Both the position numbers and the translations under genes were made by a program. From Narcine bancroftii (lineage: Eukaryota), in contig NC_091470.1 of assembly GCF_036971445.1 (NCBI RefSeq), forward strand, positions 196,230,001 to 196,294,000: DNA of 64,000 nt. The letters run 5' to 3'. The notes under the pieces were generated by a model, which saw only the letters and a list, made by a program, of their open reading frames with translations, had not been told where the DNA came from and did not search any database. Below are positions 1 through 46,032 of the stretch, piece by piece. How positions within the stretch are numbered: position 1 is the stretch's first letter; each line of letters begins with the position of its first letter.

Positions 1-1708
1 ACTCGGTCGACCAAGGGGTCGTTCTTTGAGTGCCGGACGTGGCGTCGCAAAAGGACGGTGCCAGGGACTGTGAGCCATGCCGGTACAGTGGTTCCTGATT
101 CGGATTTCCTCGGGAAAAGGAACATCCTTTCGTGGTGGGTGGCATTTGTTGCAGTACATAGGAGGGAGCGGATGGAGTGTAAGGCACTAGTGAGAACCTC
201 CTGCCAGTGAGAGGTGGGGAGACCTTTAGACTGGAGAGCCAGTGTAACCGCTCTCCATATGGTGGCATTCTCCCTCTCGACCTGGCCGTTACCGCATGGG
301 TTATAGCTCGTGGTCCTGCTTGAAGCGATACTACACTCCAGAAGGTACTGTTGCAGCTCTGCGCTCACGAATGAGGACCCCCTATCACTGCGGATGGAAT
401 TGGGGTATCTGAAGATGGCGAAAATACTATGAAGGGCCTGTATCACTGAGGTGGCAGTGGTGTCTGGGCAGGGCACAGCGAACGGGAAGCTGGAGTACTC
501 GTCGATGGCCGTACGGATGTAGGTATTACGGTTGGTCGATGGTAAAGTCTATGCTAAGACGCTCGAAGGGGCGGGTGGCTTTGATAACGTGGGAGTATAT
601 CCGGACGGAAGAAGTGGGGCTTGCATTCAGCGCACACCAAACAGGCTCGGGTCATGGAGTGGATCTCCTCAACTGTGTAGGGTAGGCTGCGCGCCTTCAC
701 AAAGTGGGCAAACCTAGTGACCCCTGGAATACAGAGCGCCTCATGGAGTTTCTGTAGTCTGTCCAGCTGTATGCTGGCGCACGTCCCCCTGGAGAGCGTG
801 TCAGGCGGGTCATTGAGCTTACCAGGCCGGTACAGGATGTCATAGTTAAAGGTGGAGAGTTCGATTCTCCATCTGGTGATTTTGTCGTTTTTTATCTTAC
901 CTCGCTGGGTGTTGCTGAACATGAAGGAGACCGCGCGTTGATCAGTCAACAGTGTAAATCACCTCCCAGCGAGGTAATATCTCCAACGACGCACCGCTTC
1001 AACTATGGCCTGGGCCTCCTTCTCGATCGAGGAGTGTCTACTCTCTGGACCCTGGAGGGTTCTGGAGAAGAAGGCTACAGGCCGACCGGCCTGGTTCAAG
1101 GTGGCTGCCCAGGGCGAAGTCGGATGCATCACTCTCGACTTGAAACGGGACAGACTCATCGATCCCATGCAGCGTCGCAGCAGCGATGTCGGATTTGATT
1201 ATACAGTTCTTTCAGTACCTTTATGGCTGCGGTGTAAGTGGTCTCATCCTGGATGTTCTCGTAGACTCTCAAGGACACCATAGACAGCAATGCTTTTAGA
1301 CGCTGGTTATCCTCCTCCACCTCAATGAATCTCAGGAAGTTTTCAAAGTTCAGCAGCCAGAAGTTAAAGGCTTTGAAGGCTGTAGCTGACTGTGGGTCGA
1401 TATCAAGCTTTTCTGGCCGAGTTAAACGCTCCATCCCTTTCAAAAAAATTCATTTTGCTAATAAAATGGTAGAGCTCGTCGAAAGAACCAAAGACTTGTT
1501 GATCCAAACCAAGGCTTTTATTAGCAAAAGACAGGAGCTCTTCATAGGTGGCTGACCAGTCCGGAATGATCCGACCTGGCTAGGGACACAACCCTTTTAA
1601 GGCCCAGACAATAGGCGTGGCTTAGCTCTCCGCCAATCACTGTAAGCACAGTCTAGATACAGTAACTATATACACTATGTACATTGGTGATAGATCTGTA
1701 TTATCACA
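1..1708 (-). mobile_element. Gypsy/Ty3 LTR retrotransposon, internally deleted (5' LTR, gag N-terminus fused to RNase H-integrase); runs off the window start
   Basis: Gag start RPEKLDIDPQS..FNFWLLNFENF (ORF 1156-1443) abuts RNase H (VPFQVESDASDFAL, GRPVAFFSRTL, EKEAQAIVEAVRRW, KIKNDKITRWRIEL) and the integrase zinc finger (H..CLVCAECKP). Protease and RT are absent; frameshifts present. Confidence 0.9.
1467..1708 (-). mobile_element. 5' LTR of the Gypsy element
   Basis: TG...CA termini on the minus strand (TGTGATAA...CTACCA), internal AATAAA near 1516-1522, directly upstream of gag. Confidence 0.7.
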
Positions 1709-3494: not shown

Positions 3495-4614
3495 GGTGGT
3501 GGGTGGGTGGGTGGGGGGGGGGGTAGTTCCAAACCATTACAGTTCAGGCATCATTCTGAAGAGATTTTAAATTTGTGTCTTAGAAATCCTTTGTGTAGAA
3601 ACTCAGAGTCTTTCAACTGCAGTTGAAAAGTTCTCAAACTCACGAATTCTTGTAGATTTGCTTTCAGAGAAATATTTCTTCATACGAACGACTGTATCCT
3701 CTCTCTTGCCTGGAGGTTTCGGAACTTGTGCTTCACAAGCCAATTTCACCCACCCAGGCAAGGGAGAAACAAAGTGACCATTACAATTGGACGTGTTGAA
3801 CCGCCCTCTCCCCTGGCAAAGAGACAGGTGAAGTGGCCCACCCCCTCGAATCTACTGACTCTGTGCTCCTCCCCTATCACAGGAAGAATGCACAGCAGGA
3901 CCTTCCTCTTCAGAGGCCACTGCAACTCCCTGATGTCAGACGAAGCGTGGCTCAATATTGAAGGGCCCCACGACACTAATGTGACACTGTTGCTGGTTTT
4001 GTTTGGCTCAATATTGAAGGGCCCCACGACACAGACGCGACACTGTTGCTGGTTTTGTTTGAAGTTCTCCACTTCCAAAGGTTTACGAGAAATTGCCTCC
4101 GATGTTTCTGCATAGCCATCTAACAAAATGGTGGCTTGTTTGACCGGGCACCTTTCTGAGTAAATGTCATTGTCTTCGGTTTCAATGGAGACAGTCATCG
4201 AACTGCTTTTAATGGTCTGAAGTCGCAGTCAGACTGTGTCTGAGTAAATGTTTGCTAGCCCCTATCACACTGGCCAACCTGTAAATTGGCCAGTCAAGAG
4301 AAGGCCCGTTCACACTGGACCACTGTTAACCAGCATTTACACCCACCACCAGACAGACAGCTCCAGGGAGAGGGTGGACCTGCCCCTCCCAGAATTCCAT
4401 GCAGCAGAGACACCCCTCCACGAGTGCTCCGTGCTTTCTACACCCCACGGAATTGTGGGAGGTCAGGTCCGCCATCATGCATTTCATTCACCCCTCCCCC
4501 CGACATTCCCACGGTCCTTTATAAGTGGTTTTATTCTGTGCTGTTACGTTAAGTTTTTTTAAATACATCGAGGGTGGGAGAGGGAGGAAAAAAGAGGGAG
4601 AGGGACGGGGGGCC

Positions 4615-7600
4615 AGCGGGGGGGAGGGGGAGAGGCGGCGGGGGGGAGGGGGAGAGGCGGCGGGGGGGAGGGGGAGAGGCGGCGGGGGGGAGGGGGAGAG
4701 GCGGCGGGGGGGAGGGGGAGAGGCGGCGGGGGGGAGGGGGAGAGGCGGCGGGGGGGAGGGGGAGAGGCGGCGGGGGGGAGGGGGAGAGGCGGCGGGGGGG
4801 AGGGGGAGAGGCGGCGGGGGGGGGGGAGAGGCGGCGGGGGGGAGGGGGAGAGGCGGCGGGGGGGAGGGGGAGAGGCGGCGGGGGGGAGGGGGAGAGGCGG
4901 CGGGGGGGAGGGGGAGAGGCGGCGGGGGGGAGGGGGAGAGGCGGCGGGGGGGAGGGGGAGAGGCGGCGGGGGGGAGGGGGAGAGGCGGCGGGGGGGAGGG
5001 GGAGAGGCGGCGGGGGGGAGGGGGAGAGGCGGCGGGGGGGAGGGGGAGAGGCGGCGGGGGGCAGGGGGAGAGGCGGCGGGGGGCAGGGGGAGAGGCGGCG
5101 GGGGGCAGGGGGAGAGGCGGCGGGGGGCAGGGGGAGAGGCGGCGGGGGGCGGGGGAGAGGCGGCGGGGGGCGGGGGAGAGGCGGCGGGGGGCGGGGGAGA
5201 GGCGGCGGGGGGCGGGGGAGAGGCGGCGGGGGGCGGGGGAGAGGCGGCGGGGGGCGGGGGAGAGGCGGCGGGGGGCAGGGGGAGAGGCGGCGGGGGGCAG
5301 GGGGAGAGGCGGCGGGGGGCAGGGGGAGAGGCGGCGGGGGGCAGGGGGAGAGGCGGCGGGGGGCAGGGGGAGAGGCGGCGGGGGGCAGGGGGAGAGGCGG
5401 CGGGGGGCAGGGGGAGAGGCGGCGGGGGGCAGGGGGAGAGGCGGCGGGGGGCAGGGGGAGAGGCGGCGGGGGGCAGGGGGAGAGGCGGCGGGGGGCAGGG
5501 GGAGAGGCGGCGGGGGGCAGGGGGAGAGGCGGCGGGGGGCAGGGGGAGAGGCGGCGGGGGGAGAGGCGGCGGGGGGGAGAGGCGGCGGGGGGGAGAGGCG
5601 GCGGGGGGGAGAGGCGGCGGGGGGGAGAGGCGGCGGGGGGGAGAGGCGGCGGGGGGGAGAGGCGGCGGGGGGGAGAGGCGGCGAGGGGGAGAGGCGGCGG
5701 GGGGGAGAGGCGGCGAGGGGGAGAGGCGGCGGGGGGGAGAGGCGGCGGGGGGGAGAGGCGGCGAGGGGGAGGGGGAGAGGCGGCGGGGGGGAGGGGGAGA
5801 GGCGGCGGGGGGGAGGGGGAGAGGCGGCGGGGGGGAGGGGGAGAGGCGGCGGGGGGGGGGGAGAGGCGGCGGGGGGGAGGGGGAGAGGCGGCGGGGGGGA
5901 GGGGGAGAGGCGGCGGGGGGGAGGGGGAGAGGCGGCGGGGGGGAGGGGGAGAGGCGGCGGGGGGGAGGGGGAGAGGCGGCGGGGGGGAGGGGGAGAGGCG
6001 GCGGGGGGGAGGGGGAGAGGCGGCGGGGGGGAGGGGGAGAGGCGGCGGGGGGGAGGGGGAGAGGCGGCGGGGGGGAGGGGGAGAGGCGGCGGGGGGGAGG
6101 GGGAGAGGCGGCGGGGGGGAGGGGGAGAGGCGGCGGGGGGGAGGGGGAGAGGCGGCGGGGGGGAGGGGGAGAGGCGGCGGGGGGGAGGGGGAGAGGCGGC
6201 GGGGGGGGGGGAGAGGCGGCGGGGGGGAGGGGGAGAGGCGGCGGGGGGGAGGGGGAGAGGCGGCGGGGGGGAGGGGGAGAGGCGGCGGGGGGGAGGGGGA
6301 GAGGCGGCGGGGGGGAGGGGGAGAGGCGGCGGGGGGGAGGGGGAGAGGCGGCGGGGGGGAGGGGGAGAGGCGGCGGGGGGGAGGGGGAGAGGCGGCGGGG
6401 GGGAGGGGGAGAGGCGGCGGGGGGGAGGGGGAGAGGCGGCGGGGGGGAGGGGGAGAGGCGGCGGGGGGGAGGGGGAGAGGCGGCGGGGGGCAGGGGGAGA
6501 GGCGGCGGGGGGCAGGGGGAGAGGCGGCGGGGGGCAGGGGGAGAGGCGGCGGGGGGCGGGGGAGAGGCGGCGGGGGGCGGGGGAGAGGCGGCGGGGGGCG
6601 GGGGAGAGGCGGCGGGGGGCGGGGGAGAGGCGGCGGGGGGCGGGGGAGAGGCGGCGGGGGGCGGGGGAGAGGCGGCGGGGGGCAGGGGGAGAGGCGGCGG
6701 GGGGCAGGGGGAGAGGCGGCGGGGGGCAGGGGGAGAGGCGGCGGGGGGCAGGGGGAGAGGCGGCGGGGGGCAGGGGGAGAGGCGGCGGGGGGCAGGGGGA
6801 GAGGCGGCGGGGGGCAGGGGGAGAGGCGGCGGGGGGCAGGGGGAGAGGCGGCGGGGGGCAGGGGGAGAGGCGGCGGGGGGCAGGGGGAGAGGCGGCGGGG
6901 GGCAGGGGGAGAGGCGGCGGGGGGCAGGGGGAGAGGCGGCGGGGGGCAGGGGGAGAGGCGGCGGGGGGCAGGGGGAGAGGCGGCGGGGGGAGAGGCGGCG
7001 GGGGGGAGAGGCGGCGGGGGGGAGAGGCGGCGGGGGGGGAGAGGCGGCGGGGGGGAGAGGCGGCGGGGGGGAGAGGCGGCGGGGGGGAGAGGCGGCGAGG
7101 GGGAGAGGCGGCGGGGGGGAGAGGCGGCGAGGGGGAGAGGCGGCGGGGGGGAGAGGCGGCGGGGGGGAGAGGCGGCGAGGGGGAGAGGCGGCGAGGGGGA
7201 GAGGCGGCGAGGGGGAGAGGCGGCGAGGGGGAGAGGCGGCGAGGGGGAGAGGCGGCGAGGGGGAGAGGCGGCGAGGGGGAGAGGCGGCGAGGGGGAGAGG
7301 CGGCGAGGGGGAGAGGCGGCGAGGGGGAGAGGCGGCGAGGGGGAGAGGCGGCGAGGGGGAGAGGCGGGGAGGGGGAGAGGCGGCGAGGGGGAGGGGGAGA
7401 GGCGGCGAGGGGGAGGGGGAGAGGCGGCGAGGGGGAGGGGGAGAGGCGGCGAGGGGGAGGGGGAGAGGCGGCGAGGGGGAGGGGGAGAGGCGGCGAGGGG
7501 GAGGGGGAGAGGCGGCGAGGGGGAGGGGGAGAGGCGGCGAGGGGGAGGGGGAGAGGCGGCGAGGGGGAGAGGCGGCGAGGGGGAGAGGCGGCGAGGGGGA

Positions 7601-9570
7601 GAGGCGGCGAGGGGGAGAGGCGGCGAGGGGGAGAGGCGGCGAGGGGGAGAGGCGGCGAGGGGGAGAGGCGGCGAGGGGGAGAGGCGGCGAGGGGGAGAGG
7701 CGGCGAGGGGGAGAGGCGGCGAGGGGGAGAGGCGGCGAGGGGGAGAGGCGGCGAGGGGGAGAGGCGGCGAGGGGGAGAGGCGGCGAGGGGGAGGGGGAGA
7801 GGCGGCGAGGGGGAGAGGCGGCGAGGGGGAGGGGGAGAGGCGGCGAGGGGGAGGGGGAGAGGCGGCGAGGGGGAGGGGGAGAGGCGGCGAGGGGGAGGGG
7901 GAGAGGCGGCGAGGGGGAGGGGGAGAGGCGGCGAGGGGGAGGGGGAGAGGCGGCGAGGGGGAGGGGGAGAGGCGGCGAGGGGGAGGGGGAGAGGCGGCGA
8001 GGGGGAGGGGGAGAGGCGGCGAGGGGGAGGGGGAGAGGCGGCGAGGGGGAGGGGGAGAGGCGGCGAGGGGGAGGGGGAGAGGCGGCGAGGGGGAGGGGGA
8101 GAGGCGGCGAGGGGGAGGGGGAGAGGCGGCGAGGGGGAGGGGGAGAGGCGGCGAGGGGGAGGGGGAGAGGCGGCGAGGGGGAGGGGGAGAGGCGGCGAGG
8201 GGGAGGGGGAGAGGCGGCGAGGGGGAGGGGGAGAGGCGGCGAGGGGGAGGGGGAGAGGCGGCGAGGGGGAGGGGGAGAGGCGGCGAGGGGGAGGGGGAGA
8301 GGCGGCGAGGGGGAGGGGGAGAGGCGGCGAGGGGGAGGGGGAGAGGCGGCGAGGGGGAGGGGGAGAGGCGGCGAGGGGGAGGGGGAGAGGCGGCGAGGGG
8401 GAGGGGGAGAGGCGGCGAGGGGGAGGGGGAGAGGCGGCGAGGGGGAGGGGGAGAGGCGGCGAGGGGGAGGGGGAGAGGCGGCGAGGGGGAGGGGGAGAGG
8501 CGGCGAGGGGGAGGGGGAGAGGCGGCGAGGGGGAGGGGGAGAGGCGGCGAGGGGGAGGGGAGAGGCGGCGAGGGGGAGGGGGAGAGGCGGCGAGGGGGAG
8601 GGGGAGAGGCGGCGAGGGGGAGGGGGAGAGGCGGCGAGGGGGAGGGGGAGAGGCGGCGAGGGGGAGGGGGAGAGGCGGCGAGGGGGAGGGGGAGAGGCGG
8701 CGAGGGGGAGGGGGAGAGGCGGCGAGGGGGAGGGGGAGAGGCGGCGAGGGGGAGGGGGAGAGGCGGCGAGGGGGAGGGGGAGAGGCGGCGAGGGGGAGGG
8801 GGAGAGGCGGCGAGGGGGAGGGGGAGAGGCGGCGAGGGGGAGGGGGAGAGGCGGCGAGGGGGAGGGGGGGAGAGGCGGCGAGGGGGAGAGGCGGCGAGGG
8901 GGAGGGGGAGAGGCGGCGAGGGGGAGGGGGAGAGGCGGCGAGGGGGAGGGGGAGAGGCGGCGAGGGGGAGGGGGAGAGGCGGCGAGGGGGAGGGGGAGAG
9001 GCGGCGAGGGGGAGGGGGAGAGGCGGCGAGGGGGAGGGGGAGAGGCGGCGAGGGGGAGGGGGAGAGGCGGCGAGGGGGAGGGGGAGAGGCGGCGAGGGGG
9101 AGGGGGAGAGGCGGCGAGGGGGAGGGGGAGAGGCGGCGAGGGGGAGGGGGAGAGGCGGCGAGGGGGAGGGGGAGAGGCGGCGAGGGGGAGGGGGAGAGGC
9201 GGCGAGGGGGAGGGGGAGAGGCGGCGAGGGGGAGGGGGAGAGGCAGCGAGGGGGAGGGGGAGAGGCAGCGAGGGGGAGGGGGAGAGGCAGCGAGGGGGAG
9301 GGGGAGAGGCAGCGAGGGGGAGGGGGAGAGGCAGCGAGGGGGAGGGGGAGAGGCAGCGAGGGGGAGGGGGAGAGGCAGCGAGGGGGAGGGGGAGAGGCAG
9401 CGAGGGGGAGGGGGAGAGGCAGCGAGGGGGAGGGGGAGAGGCAGCGAGGGGGAGGGGGAGAGGCAGCGAGGGGGAGGGGGAGAGGCAGCGAGGGGGAGGG
9501 GGAGAGGCAGCGAGGGGGAGGGGGAGAGGCAGCGAGGGGGAGGGGGGAGAGGCAGCGAGGGGGAGAGGCC
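4615..9570 (+). repeat. G-rich minisatellite (about 15-22 bp units, GGGGAGAGGCGGCG[G/A]GGGGA)
   Basis: About 5 kb tandem array essentially free of T on the + strand; intronic to the PLAC8-family gene. Confidence 0.97.
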
Positions 9571-9725
9571 GCGATGGGTAGGGGGAGAGAAGGGAGAAGG
9601 GAGAGGAGAGGGAGGGATGGGTGTTAGATGATGTAGAGGGAAATAATGTTGGCTACGTCTCTGGCCCCAGCAGTATGCCCTGGCAGACGGCGGATCCCAG
9701 CATTCAGTGGGGCGATTGGACTTAC

Positions 9726-9904
9726 CGGTATGTCATAGCGCTCACGTGTGGCCACTCTCATGGCAAGGGAGATGGGCGGGATGATCATAAAAATGCCGCC
9801 GGAACAGGTGCAGCAGATCTCCAGCAACGGCAGACAGAGGCACTCGCCGAACTCATCCGCTGTCTTACACATGAAGCAGGGGAAACACCAGAAGGCCAGG
9901 CAGC
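9726..9904 (-). CDS. PLAC8/cornifelin-family protein, middle coding exon
   Basis: cccacAG acceptor, GTAAGT donor, phase 1 to 0; CCLAFWCFPCFMCKTADEFGECLCLP...AMRVATRERYDIP. Confidence 0.93.
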
Positions 9905-33930: not shown

Positions 33931-34404
33931 ACTTTTATTTTTAATTTGTTATGGGTTTCTGTGTTTGTAGCTGTGAGAGATAATAGAATATAGGAAGTAA
34001 AGCTAGTATGAATGAGGAATACTAGACTAGATTAGAGGAAGTTAAGTAAGTGCTGAGTAGGGATGGATTACGATAAGAGTGTGAGGAATGGTTATGCAAG
34101 TATAATAGAATAAGGGTCTTATATTGATAGAAAGAATTAGCAAGTTCTGCAGTAGTAAGTCCTGGGGTTTGAGATGTGTGAATAAGAACAAAGGCAGATT
34201 CATGAATAAGGACAATGACATGATGGGACCCAGACAGGATACCCCATGGTCTTTCAAGTTTACAGACTGCACGTAGGCACACAGAATTACCAATTGCCAA
34301 ACCAATCCAGGAGGCAGAAGAATGTTAAGGGGGGGAGGGTACCTCTACACAGAAATGAACTGTATAAAAGTTGGGTGAGCCCCAGTATGTGTGTGTATTC
34401 CCAG

Positions 34405-35832
34405 AGCCCCGATCCGGGCAAGAGCGAAGGGGAGGCGGCGGCCCCGGCCTCAGTCGAGTGAGGCAGGCGGAGGCCCCGGTCCGGGCAGAAAGTAGGAGGC
34501 GGCGGCCCCAGTCCGGGCACAGGGAAAGCAGCGGCGGCCTCGGCCTCGGCCCCGGTCCGGGCAGTATGGTCCGACCTAGGAGGGGAGGCAGGCCCCTCCA
34601 GCCCGGGTAAGAAACCTGCACAGGAGAAGGCCACTCAGATATAAAACCTACGACCCAAGGACCTCGCTGCCATGTCCCAGCTTGCTTGGCCATGGCACAC
34701 GAACCATGGGTGTAAAGGGTGGGGCCAGTACTGCGCACACTACACTCCACCTAAAAGCTCCATTGCGCAGGCCCGAGGACATATCCACATACTCCCCCTC
34801 CACGTCCTCCCCCTCGAAAGATGCTCACAATCTCAAGCTAGCATGCTGGAACATCAGAACCATGCTAGACAAGGCCGACAGACACCGACCTGAACGTCGG
34901 TCTGCCCTCATTGCACATGAACTCCTCAGACTTGACATCGATATAGCCGCTCTCAGTGAAGTCCGCCTTGCAGATGTAGGCAGCCTCCAAGAACGCGGCG
35001 CAGGCTACACACTCTACTGGTCTGGCAAGCCTATGGATGAACGACGCCTATCTGGTGTAGGCTTCATGGTCAAGAACTCCATTGCCTGCAAACTCGAAAA
35101 CCTCCCAACAGGCCACTCGGACCGGATCATGTCCATGCGACTCCCCCTTCAAAACAAGCGTCGCATCACCCTCATCAGTGTCTATCCTCCAACCCTCCAG
35201 GCGGAACCAGCAGAAAAGGACAAGTTCTACACTGACCTGCGCAACCTCATTCAACGCACCCCTACAGCTGACAAGGTTGTCATCCTTGGCGACTTCAACG
35301 CTCGCATCGGCAAAGACTCAGAAACCTGGCCAGGAATCCTGGGCAAGCATGGTGTCGGCAAGTGCAACAACAATGGGTGCCTCCTGTTGGAGCTCTGCGC
35401 AGAACAGCGGCTTGTCATTACAAACACCCTTTTTCAGCAGAAGGACACCCTGAAGACTACCTGGATGCATCCCCGATCCAAACACTGGCATCTCCTGGAC
35501 TACGTCCTGGTGCGAGAAAGAGACCAATGGTCAGAACACTTCCAATCTCTTTTCAGTGCCAACGGCTCAGTCCAGGATTCTGCCCTGCTCCAGCTCCCTC
35601 AACAGCCCCTAAGGCTAGAGCTGGATGAGGTCCTCACCCGGGAAGAGACATATAAGGCAATTGAACAACTGAAAAGTGGCAAAGCAGCAGGTATGGATGG
35701 AATCCCCCCAGAGGTCTGGAAGGCTGGCGGCAAAACTCTGCATGCCAAACTGCATGAGTTTTTCAAGCTCTGCTGGGACCAAGGAAAGCTGCCTCAGGAC
35801 CTTTGTGATGCCATCATCATCACCCTGTACAA
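34405..35832 (+). mobile_element. RTE (BovB-like) LINE, 5' half only, with an internal deletion
   Basis: ACWNIRTMLD..RPERRSALIAHEL..AALSEVR..ILGDFNAR endonuclease motifs; highly similar to the copy at 41191-46361 but lacking about 630 bp and the whole RT/3' end. Confidence 0.92.
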
Positions 35833-42564: not shown

Positions 42565-44799
42565 CAGTTGGATAACCATGTTGAGGAACTTTGGGGGGCA
42601 TCCGATGCGCTCTAGTATTTGCCAAAGCCCTTTCCTGTTCACGGTATCGAAGGCTTTGGTGAGGTCAACAAAGGTGATGTAGAGTCCTTTGTTTTGTTCT
42701 CTGCACTTTTCTTGGAGCTGTCTGAGGGCAAAGACCATGTCAGTAGTTCCTCTGTTTGCGTGAAAGCCGCACTGTGAATCTGGGAGAACATTCTCGGCGA
42801 CACTAGGTATTATTCTATTTAGGAGAATCCTAGCAAAGATTTTGCCTGCAATGGAGAGCAGCGTGATTCCCCTGTAGTTTGAGCAGTCTGATTTCTCGCC
42901 TTTGTTTTTGTACAGGGTGATGATAATGGCATCACGAAGGTCCTGAGGCAGGTTTCCTTGGTCCCAACAAAGCTTGAAAAACTCATGCAGTTTGGCATGC
43001 AGAGTTTTGCCGCCAGCCTTCCAGACCTCTGGGGGGATTCCATCCATACCTGCTGCTTTGCCACTTTTCAGTTGTTCAATTGCCTTATATGTCTCTTCCC
43101 GGGTGAGGACCTCATCCAGCTCTAGCCTTAGGGGCTGTTGAGGGAGCTGGAGCAGGGCAGAATCTTGGACTGAGCGGTTGGCACTGAAAAGAGATTGGAA
43201 GTGTTCTGACCATTGGTTGAGGATGGAGATCTTGTCGCTGAGGAGGACTTTGCCGTCTGAGCTGCGCAGCGGGCTTTGGACTTGGGGTGAGGGGCTGTAC
43301 ACAGCCTTCAGAGCCTCGTAAAAACCCCTGAAGTCGCCAATGTCTGCACTGAGCTGGTTTCGTTTGGCGAGGCTAGTCCACCACTCATTTTGGATCTCCC
43401 GGAGTTTGCGCTGAAGATGGCTGCATGCACGACGGAGGGCTTGTTTCTTCTCTGGCCAGGACGGCTTTGTAAGGTGAGCCTGGTGGGCAGCTCGCTTCTT
43501 TGCCAGCAGCTCCTGGATTTCCTGGCTGTTTTCATCGAACCAGTCCTTGTTTTTCCTGGAGGTGAAGCCCAGTACCTCTTCAGTGGATTGCAGTATGGTA
43601 GTCTTCAGCTGATCCCAGAGGGTTTCAGGGGACGAGTCCGTGAGGCGGATTGCATCCTCGAGCTTTGCTTTGAAGTTTGCCTGGAAGTTTCCTCTCACTT
43701 CGTCTGACTGCAGGTTTCCAACATTGAACCTCTTTCTGGGGGTTTTACTGTTGGCTTGAAGTGAAGGTTGAGCTTGCAGCGAACCAGCCGGTGGTCAGTG
43801 TGGCATTCCGCGCTGGGCATGACCTTGGTGTGGAGCACATCTCGTTTGTCTCTTTCTCGCACCAGGACGTAGTCCAGGACATGCCAGTGTTTGGATCGGG
43901 GATGCATCCAGGTAGTCTTCAGGCTGTCCCTCTGCTGAAAAAGGGTGTTTGTAATGACAAGCCGCTGTTCTGCGCAGAGCTCCAACAGGAGGCGCCCATT
44001 GTTGTTGCACTTGCCGACACCATGCTTGCCCAGGATTCCTGGCCAGGTTTCTGAGTCTTTGCCGATGCGAGCGTTGAAGTCGCCAAGGATGACAACCTTG
44101 TCGGCTGTAGGGGTGCATTGAATGAGGTTGCACAGGTCAGAACTTGTCCTTTTCTGCTGGTTCCGCCTGGAGGGTTGAAACATAGACACTGATGAGGGTG
44201 ATGCGACGCTTGTTTTGAAGGGGGAGTCGCATGGACATGATCCGGTCCGAGTGGCCTGTCGGGAGGTTTTCGAGTTTGGAAGCAATGGAGTTCTTGACCA
44301 TGAAGCCTACACCAGATAGGTGTCGTTCATCCATAGACTTGCCAGACCAGTAGAGTGTGTAGCCCGCGCTGCGTTCTTGGAGGCTGCCTACATCTGCAAG
44401 GCGGACTTCACTGAGAGCGGCTATGTCGATGTCAAGTCTGAGGAGTTCATGTGCAATGAGGGCAGACCGACGTTCAGGTCTGTCGGCCTTGTCTAGCATG
44501 GTTCTGATGTTCCAGCATGCTAGCTTGAGTTTGTGAGCATCTTTTGAGGGGGAGGATGTGGAGGGGGAGGACGTGGAGGGGGAGGACGTGGACCTGTCGT
44601 CGGGCCTGCGCAAAGGAGCTTTAAGGTGGAGTGCAGTGCGCGCAGTACTGGCTGCACCCTTTACACCCATGGTTCGTGGCCAAGCAAGCTGGGATGTGGC
44701 AGCGAGGTCCTTGGGTCGTAGGTTTTATATCGGAGTGGCCTTCTCCTATGCAGGTTTCTTACCCGGGCTGGAGGGGCCTGCCTCCCCTCCTAGGTCGGA

Positions 44800-46032
44800 C
44801 CATACTGCCCAGTCCGGGGCCGAGGCCGCCGCTGCTTTTCCTGTGCCCGGACTGGGGCCGCCGCCTCCTACTTTCTGCCCGGACCGGGGCCTCTGCCTGC
44901 CTCACTCGACCGAGGCTGGAGCTGCCGCCTCCCCTTTCACTCTTGCCCAGATCGGGGCCGCTGCCGCCTACCCTCTGCCCGGACCGGGTCGGGGCCGCCA
45001 CTGCTTTCCCTGTGCCCGGACTGGGGCCGCCGCCTCCTACTTTCTGCCCGGACCAGGGCCTCCGCCTGTCTCACTCGACCGAGGCCGGAGCTGCCGCCTC
45101 CCCTTTCGCTCTTGCCCGGATCGGGGCCGCCACTGCTTTTCCTGTGCCCGGACTGGGACCGCCGCCTCCTACTTTCTGCCCGGACCAGGGCCTCCGCCTG
45201 TCTCACTCGACTGAGGCCGGAGCTGCCGCCTCCCCTTTCGCTCTTGCCCGGATCGGGGCCGCCGCCGCCTACCCTCTGCCCGGACCGGGTCGGGGCCGCC
45301 ACTGCTTTCCCTGTACCCGGACCGGGGCCGCCGCCTCCTTCTTTCTACCCGGACCGGGGCCTCCGCCTGCCTCACTCAACCGAGGCCGGGGCCGCCGCTT
45401 CCCCTTCGCTCTTGCCTGGATTGGGGCCGCCGCCTCCCCTTTCACTCTTGCCCAGATCGGGGCCGCTGCCGCCTACCCTCTGCCCGGACCGGGTCGGGGC
45501 CGCCACTGCTTTCCCTGTGCCCGGACTGGGGCCGCCGCCTCCTACTTTCTGCCCGGACCAGGGCCTCCGCCTGTCTCACTCGACCGAGGCCGGAGCTGCC
45601 GCCTCCCCTTTCGCTCTTGCCCGGATCGGGGCCGCCACTGCTTTCCCTGTGCCCGGACTGGGACCGCCGCCTCCTACTTTCTGCCCGGACCAGGGCCTCC
45701 GCCTGTCTCACTCGACTGAGGCCGGAGCTGCCGCCTCCCCTTTCGCTCTTGCCCGGATCGGGGCCGCCGTCGCCTACCCTCTGCCCGGACCGGGTCGGGG
45801 CCGCCACTGCTTTCCCTGTACCCGGACCGGGGCCGCCGCCTCCTTCTTTCTACCCGGACCGGGGCCTCCGCCTGCCTCACTCAACCGAGGCCGGGGCCGC
45901 CGCTTCCCCTTCGCTCTTGCCTGGATTGGGGCCGCCGTCTGCCTCACTCGACCAAGGCCGGGGCCGCCGCCTCCCCTTCACTCTTGCCCTGATCGGGGCT
46001 GACACCGCCTACCCTCTGCCCGGACCGGGGCA
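44800..46032. repeat. GC-rich tandem array in the RTE 5' UTR with a 505-bp higher-order duplication
   Basis: About 30-40 bp units cored on GGGGCCGCC; near-identical translations at 44937-45302 and 45442-45807. Confidence 0.92.

Follow-up and report, generated by a model that had tools for sequence, protein, structure and literature searches.

How does a Ty3/gypsy element begin reverse transcription when the sequence just past its 5' LTR resembles no tRNA primer site and is instead complementary to the LTR itself? The question was raised by a copy lying on the minus strand of the window, a 64,000-nucleotide stretch of the Narcine bancroftii genome (G000:C5:196230001-196294000). The initial annotation had noticed a perfect 14-nt self-complement there and had proposed that it serves self-priming and, in addition, conceals the poly(A) signal of the 5' LTR alone.

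The window copy and its matched arms

In a comparison of 20 copies the LTR proved to be 240 nt long and bounded by TG...CA, a purine tract precedes the 3' LTR, and one base separates the LTR end from the second arm. Target duplications of 5 bp were found in most two-LTR copies of this set, and the window copy has ACTTA at both ends. The LTR of the window copy spans 1708-1468 and ends TACC, not TACA; with this span, one spacer base (1467) precedes the second arm. The two LTRs of this copy differ at nine positions, and the copy is dead, with about 2.5 kb deleted and broken reading frames (Table 1). Intact sister copies carry a single ORF of 1414-1449 amino acids, and the ORF of copy L048, whose LTR numbering is used below (arm 179-192, GCC at 193, initiator A at 141), encodes a zinc knuckle, protease, RT, RNase H and integrase. 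The TG...CA LTRs, target duplication, polypurine tract and PR-RT-RH-IN order identify the element as Ty3/gypsy. The genome contains at least 2140 matches to the LTR-end/primer-site pattern, counting all subfamilies and mis-copies; the family is young and large in this vertebrate genome, and protein searches of the same genome recovered this young family alone.

Table 1. Features of the element copy, in window positions unless stated otherwise.
Feature	Position	Strand	Remarks
5' LTR, 241 nt here	1468..1708	-	Sister copies 240 nt; terminal CA reads CC here
3' LTR	outside window, ~G000:C5:196229361-196229600		~400 nt beyond the window start
gag start, truncated by ~2.5-kb internal deletion	1195..1434	-	Window 1708-1195 = element nt 1-513
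RNase H and integrase remnant, frameshifted	1..1200	-	Element nt 2985 onward; domains from intact sister ORF
LTR arm TTTTGCTAATAAAA	1516..1529	-	Includes poly(A) signal AATAAA (1522-1517); putative cut at or near 1516/1515 (AAAA/GCC)
Primer-binding position TTTTATTAGCAAAA	1453..1466	-	One base past the LTR
TATA-like TTAAA(A)GG, predicted	1593..1600	-	30-32 nt before the initiator in intact subfamily A and B copies
Initiator-like TCATTCC	1563..1569	-	Putative transcription start at A 1567 (LTR nt 141, L048 numbering)
Candidate capped self-primer, ~52 nt	1516..1567	-	Deduced from junction clusters, palindromes and tailed copies
R remainder past the putative cut, 15-18 nt	1498..1515	-	Poly(A) tails after 1501 and 1498

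Some further features of the locus and the family were recorded in passing. The ORFs of L038 and L048 have an Ala/Thr-rich repeat of variable copy number between gag and protease, which enlarges this spacer and is missing in most distant relatives. The gene model P0002, annotated as an isoform of a BRCA1 homolog, holds the start of the element's gag at 100% identity and is probably an annotation chimera or an exonised insertion. Elsewhere (L022, L023; G000:C21:6250769-6251549), LTR and gag start form 562-bp units arranged head-to-tail. The window also contains a G-rich satellite of about 5 kb with a 22-bp period (14+8) at 4450-9730, and long inverted repeats at 34400-35830 and 42900-46000, 87-98% complementary and flanking several long ORFs, which are probably other mobile elements.

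Read on the minus strand, the two arms are exact reverse complements over 14 nt and the first overlaps the poly(A) signal, exactly as annotated. No inverted match of this length arose in the region in 1000 dinucleotide shuffles (mean 6.6, maximum 11), although the folding energy of the whole 121-nt region was unexceptional (z 0.30). Across the family the arms change together, each of three subfamilies having its own matched pair. Both arms were exact in 75 of 78 5' junctions from the top-scoring copies of subfamily A, the other three having one change in one arm. The complementarity breaks off sharply at 14 nt, and bases further out vary. The LTR of subfamily B is about 75% identical to that of subfamily A and carries the arm TTTTAGTTAATAAAA; the corresponding primer site, predicted from this arm before the search, was found 195 times in the genome. 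Among 30 subfamily B loci that were read, 17 had the exact B arm (13 by script, four by eye) and none the A arm; in four subfamily B copies a shared arm variant is not matched by a change in the primer site. A third matched pair belongs to subfamily C (L243).

The same arrangement was found well beyond this genome. Of 80 metagenome loci, 38 included the gag start and at least 100 nt upstream of it, and a perfect match of 11-19 nt was present in 30 of these 38, against a shuffle mean of 6-7, and an 11-nt match was missing in the remaining eight. Grouped by eye into 19 families, the distant loci had matches of at least 11 nt in 15 families, of 9 nt in two and none in two. When arms were exchanged in silico among 16 positive families and subfamilies A, B and C, a set selected for having the match, a family's own arm paired at 6.95 of the 7 positions 5-11 and the arms of other families at 3.06; up to four pair types occurred per arm position, with two G-U pairs in total. 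Most arms close with an A run that leads into GCC or ACC, and most primer sites start with TTT, one base past the LTR. Of the 18 families displayed, 11 have AATAAA or ATTAAA at the end of the arm, and most others have a near variant there. In several distant families (L133, L136, L161, L163, L170, L175, L177) a pyrimidine tract ending in CAG, which looks like a splice acceptor or an initiator, lies 2-25 nt upstream of the arm.

Aberrant insertions and tailed copies

At 243 places in the genome, the LTR end, spacer and primer site run directly into the LTR sequence upstream of the arm in reverse-complement orientation. As a source of these junctions, a simple inversion of the loop that separates the arms was considered and rejected, its reciprocal product having been found once against 243. 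One hundred junctions were read in detail. Of 20 full palindromes, bounded by a U3 end at either side, 16 had perfect 5-bp target duplications and thus were integrated in palindromic form. Across the 100 junctions the left LTR was broken inside in 54, full length in 42 and unassigned in four. The 54 breaks were concentrated at nt 181-202 (35 breaks, nine of them at 192-193), with a single one at 137. Broken left LTRs were mostly joined to antisense internal sequence, with overlaps of 0-2 nt where measurable; our strict ungapped junction script was used for these overlap lengths only, because clustered substitutions confound it. All six left-broken loci for which both ends were found carry target duplications. 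On the opposite strand, left-broken junctions read as the arm followed by U5 copied back to GCC, the sequence that primer plus strong-stop DNA would have.

Right-arm stops were located in 20 cases, ten at nt 135-143, seven at 148-171 and three lower. Three of the stops share one junction and, once these were merged, eight of 18 fell at 135-143 (p ~3e-6 versus uniform); the initiator at 141 had been recorded before the junction data were obtained. Subfamily B provided 109 junctions of the same kind, several of them in tandem arrays, and 78 were read. Its left breaks fell within -12 to +9 of GCC in 18 of 41 cases, with no sharp peak, and its right-hand stops were less clustered, 15 loci having the same junction at +2, with further stops at -3, +4, +9, +14, +14 and +15 and nine more lying upstream of these. 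Because the breakpoints spread over about 20 nt, they locate a cut to this neighbourhood and not to one base. The left-broken and right-stopped classes may also be post-insertion rearrangements, which the target duplications alone allow, and stops at the cap could stem from the plus strand jumping onto uncut RNA.

Three observations on individual loci accompany these counts. A single fold-back junction of subfamily B now forms 278-bp tandem repeats in several places, with up to 11 units per array (L467, L445, L459, L422-L424; G000 C11, C9 and C1). At L320 and L355, one copy is without LTR nt 142-190, almost exactly the candidate primer, and another joins the LTR end to nt 137. Four sequencing runs, all consisting of contigs, were aligned to the element; in runs X2 and X3, which are only guessed to be RNA, loose ends over L048:6925-7045 match the fold-back junction, and their primer site shows several A-to-G changes of the kind expected if ADAR had edited a long hairpin.

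Four tailed genomic copies, with A tails within 30 nt of the signal, provide a second set of coordinates, the tail following nt 207 in two of them and nt 210 in the other two. One of these copies (L491) covers nt 141 to 207 and lies within a 17-bp duplication. A single additional G precedes its nt 141, which is what reverse transcription of a cap should leave, but a start at nt 137 followed by the loss of 3 nt is an alternative reading. Taken together, junctions and tailed copies would place the RNA start near nt 141, from this one processed copy and the junction clusters, a strand end near 192/193, and polyadenylation at 207/210. The stop cluster and L491 thus suggest that the arm is probably not the 5' end of the RNA, as it is in the Tf1-type arrangement invoked by the initial annotation, and that it lies about 38 nt inside R. 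In predicted folds of the 5' leader, AAUAAA was 97-99% paired, while in the LTR alone it was 46-83% unpaired. These models lend in silico support to the proposal that the signal is masked in the 5' LTR only, and the duplex of arm and primer site likely hides it there.

Candidate primers

Arm covariation and the junctions both speak for the self-priming proposed at the outset, which in one form or another we regard as very probable. The version that we favour, with a probability of roughly 0.6, has as its primer a capped piece of about 52 nt that would be cut from the 5' end of the element's own RNA and pair by its last 14 nt. Transcription would start at window position 1567, and RNA nt +39 to +52 would pair with the primer site, thereby hiding AAUAAA in the 5' LTR so that transcription reads through; the 3' LTR, having no pairing partner, would be polyadenylated 16-19 nt past the signal. 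The RNA would be cut at the 3' end of the arm (at or near AAAA/GCC), by RNase H if the analogy with Tf1 holds. RT would then copy about 49 nt to the cut end, yielding strong-stop DNA whose first transfer would use 15-18 nt of R. The plus strand would copy the primer, and normal products would retain only the 14 nt that are also on the minus strand; run-on copying towards the cap would produce the palindromic and rearranged insertions. Within this scheme, we infer the cleavage, the enzyme and the masking.

The most serious competitor, to which we would give rather long odds, is priming in trans or from the 3' end, where the arm would be supplied by the 3' copy of the LTR in genomic RNA or by short LTR transcripts of ~67 nt (start to poly(A)), with the cut falling after the A run. 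The arm is present at both RNA ends because it lies in R, L491 is evidence that a short R-only transcript existed, and a U3-bearing primer would also yield palindromes with U3 at both ends. An uncut 5' template, however, would give strong-stop DNA reaching nt 141, yet the left junctions cluster at 181-202, with only one of 54 at 137, and a primer or template ending at the cap would account for the right-hand stops at 135-143.

Somewhat less probable again is the plain Tf1 geometry, with a second, replication-competent start at the first base of the arm, a 14-nt primer and an upstream start that makes other RNAs. The sharp end of complementarity, with variable bases beyond, is what such a primer would leave, and alternative start sites occur in Tf2 (accessible text of PMC5341516). 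Against it, no TATA-like motif is seen about 30 nt before the arm, and the TATA-like and initiator-like motifs kept in subfamilies A and B indicate nt 141, with which L491 and the stop cluster concur.

We consider it quite unlikely that concealing the 5' poly(A) signal is the sole role of the duplex and that some host RNA acts as primer. The frequent poly(A) hexamer at the end of the arm, folded away in the 5' leader only, would suit that role, but the breakpoints at AAAA/GCC, the fixed one-base spacer and the near-absence of G-U pairs are not predicted by it, and a host primer would need to fit three sites that differ within a single genome. The last candidate is a tRNA or a fragment of one, in which case the inverted repeat would be incidental. 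Ty3/gypsy elements normally use tRNA primers, and the site was compared here with an incomplete set of 27 distinct tRNA genes (13 anticodons), but this reading deserves hardly any credence, being already largely refuted by the covariation, in which the primer site tracks each family's own LTR. In addition, TGG is missing from the 12 nt after the LTR, as had been noted at first, the best tRNA match in that set was 7 nt (1 nt at the 3' end), and Rfam gave no match for 1300-1900.

Relatives and known systems

The closest named protein, 99% identical, is from Narcine bancroftii itself, and a profile search retrieved 751 proteins at E <= 1e-150, with ray, catshark, anemone, isopod, damselfly and nematode among the named relatives. 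Relatives have ORFs of about 1120-1280 amino acids, with Mag-like gag neighbours. No chromodomain (PF00385, PF24626) was found in the L048 ORF or in 120 listed relatives, and the RT-RNase H of one relative (P0003) is about 28-33% identical to that of fish chromoviruses. A quick tree was built from 24 rows of RT-RNase H, its chromoviruses being proteins related to one sushi-like locus of this genome, with fungal Tf1 left out; in it, eight relatives formed one branch (100) and eight chromodomain-bearing proteins another (100); two Gmr1-like rows and the gag neighbours also stood apart from the eight relatives. The missing chromodomain and this separation from the chromoviruses included speak against a Tf1/sushi-type label for the element. 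Decayed sushi-like chromoviruses (L391, L395) and Gmr1-like elements with integrase before RT (L399, L403) are present in the same genome. The gag has two zinc-knuckle arrays, as Mag elements usually do (accessible text of PMC2577118), but the four distant gag neighbours, none of them a named Mag element, fell on a separate tree branch. Two scans of viral contigs found no relatives, the ESM Atlas returned generic names only, and the nearest solved RT in the PDB, that of Ty3, was uninformative for the clade.

Self-priming in animals has so far been tied to Tf1/sushi chromoviruses, and the present element would add a second lineage, broad in range and differing in the geometry of its primer; it probably works like Tf1 from outside Tf1's group. 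The evenly balanced question for us is whether self-priming arose independently of Tf1 in gypsy elements other than chromoviruses that form a clade widespread in animals, one 9-19-bp duplex serving both a long capped primer and 5' poly(A) silencing, with start, cut and poly(A) site readable from integrated mis-copies. What is new here are the aberrant insertions that join primer site to reversed LTR, with their breakpoint clusters; such mis-copies are a natural record of reverse-transcription intermediates and allow base-level predictions (a start at 1567, cleavage near 1516/1515 and a poly(A) site after 1501 or 1498). Elements of this kind would be expected to escape control by tRNA fragments, and annotation tools based on the PBS would miss them. 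Our search of the literature outside subscription journals and Repbase found no description of self-priming in a non-chromovirus animal gypsy clade or of such palindromes, and the accessible portions of PMC6238403, PMC8556966, PMC3670739, PMC2577118, PMC3601003, PMC2774666 and PMC5445492 describe no such self-priming clade.

The nearest known counterparts, going by the accessible text of PMC10085805, PMC7175516 and PMC4600332, are Tf1/Tf2 of Schizosaccharomyces pombe, Tj1, Tosmo and the Tf1/sushi group, Ty3/gypsy elements that likewise are without a tRNA site and have a primer site pairing with a segment of R; the single gag-pol ORF is also as in Tf1. That group is a chromovirus lineage defined by self-priming and a three-duplex "pretzel" structure (PMC10085805, PMC4600332); the folds predicted here contain a hairpin in U5 and additional short helices. 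Unlike its members, the element described here has no chromodomain, belongs to a separate clade and has a short U5. Tf1 primes with the first 11 bases after an RNase H cut (PMC7175516), whereas the candidate primer would pair by its last 14 nt, from a start placed 38 nt upstream of the arm. Tf1 cDNA often retains a single-stranded copy of the primer site (accessible text of PMC11042837). Self-priming has also been predicted from complementarity between primer site and LTR for the plant elements Tcn1 (gypsy) and TAR/Houba/Osr-1 (copia), which belong to other lineages and hosts and for which the accessible part of that report describes neither overlap with a poly(A) signal nor mapping of primer ends (PMC6317226).

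Two further likenesses concern the relatives and the masking. The size and gag type of the relatives are reminiscent of Cigr-1 of Ciona intestinalis, reportedly presented by Simmen and Bird in 2000 as an element of about 4.2 kb with 245-nt LTRs, one ORF of about 1210 amino acids and a SURL-like gag. The Cigr-1 clade also occurs in molluscs and annelids. In retroviruses, the 5' poly(A) signal is occluded by the polyA hairpin of HIV-1, in which the AAUAAA of the 5' R is held in a duplex, as it likely is here. The name of the Cigr-1 clade is in use (accessible text of PMC6238403 and PMC8556966). Unlike in the HIV-1 hairpin, the partner strand of the duplex in the present element is provided by the primer site, beyond the end of the LTR.
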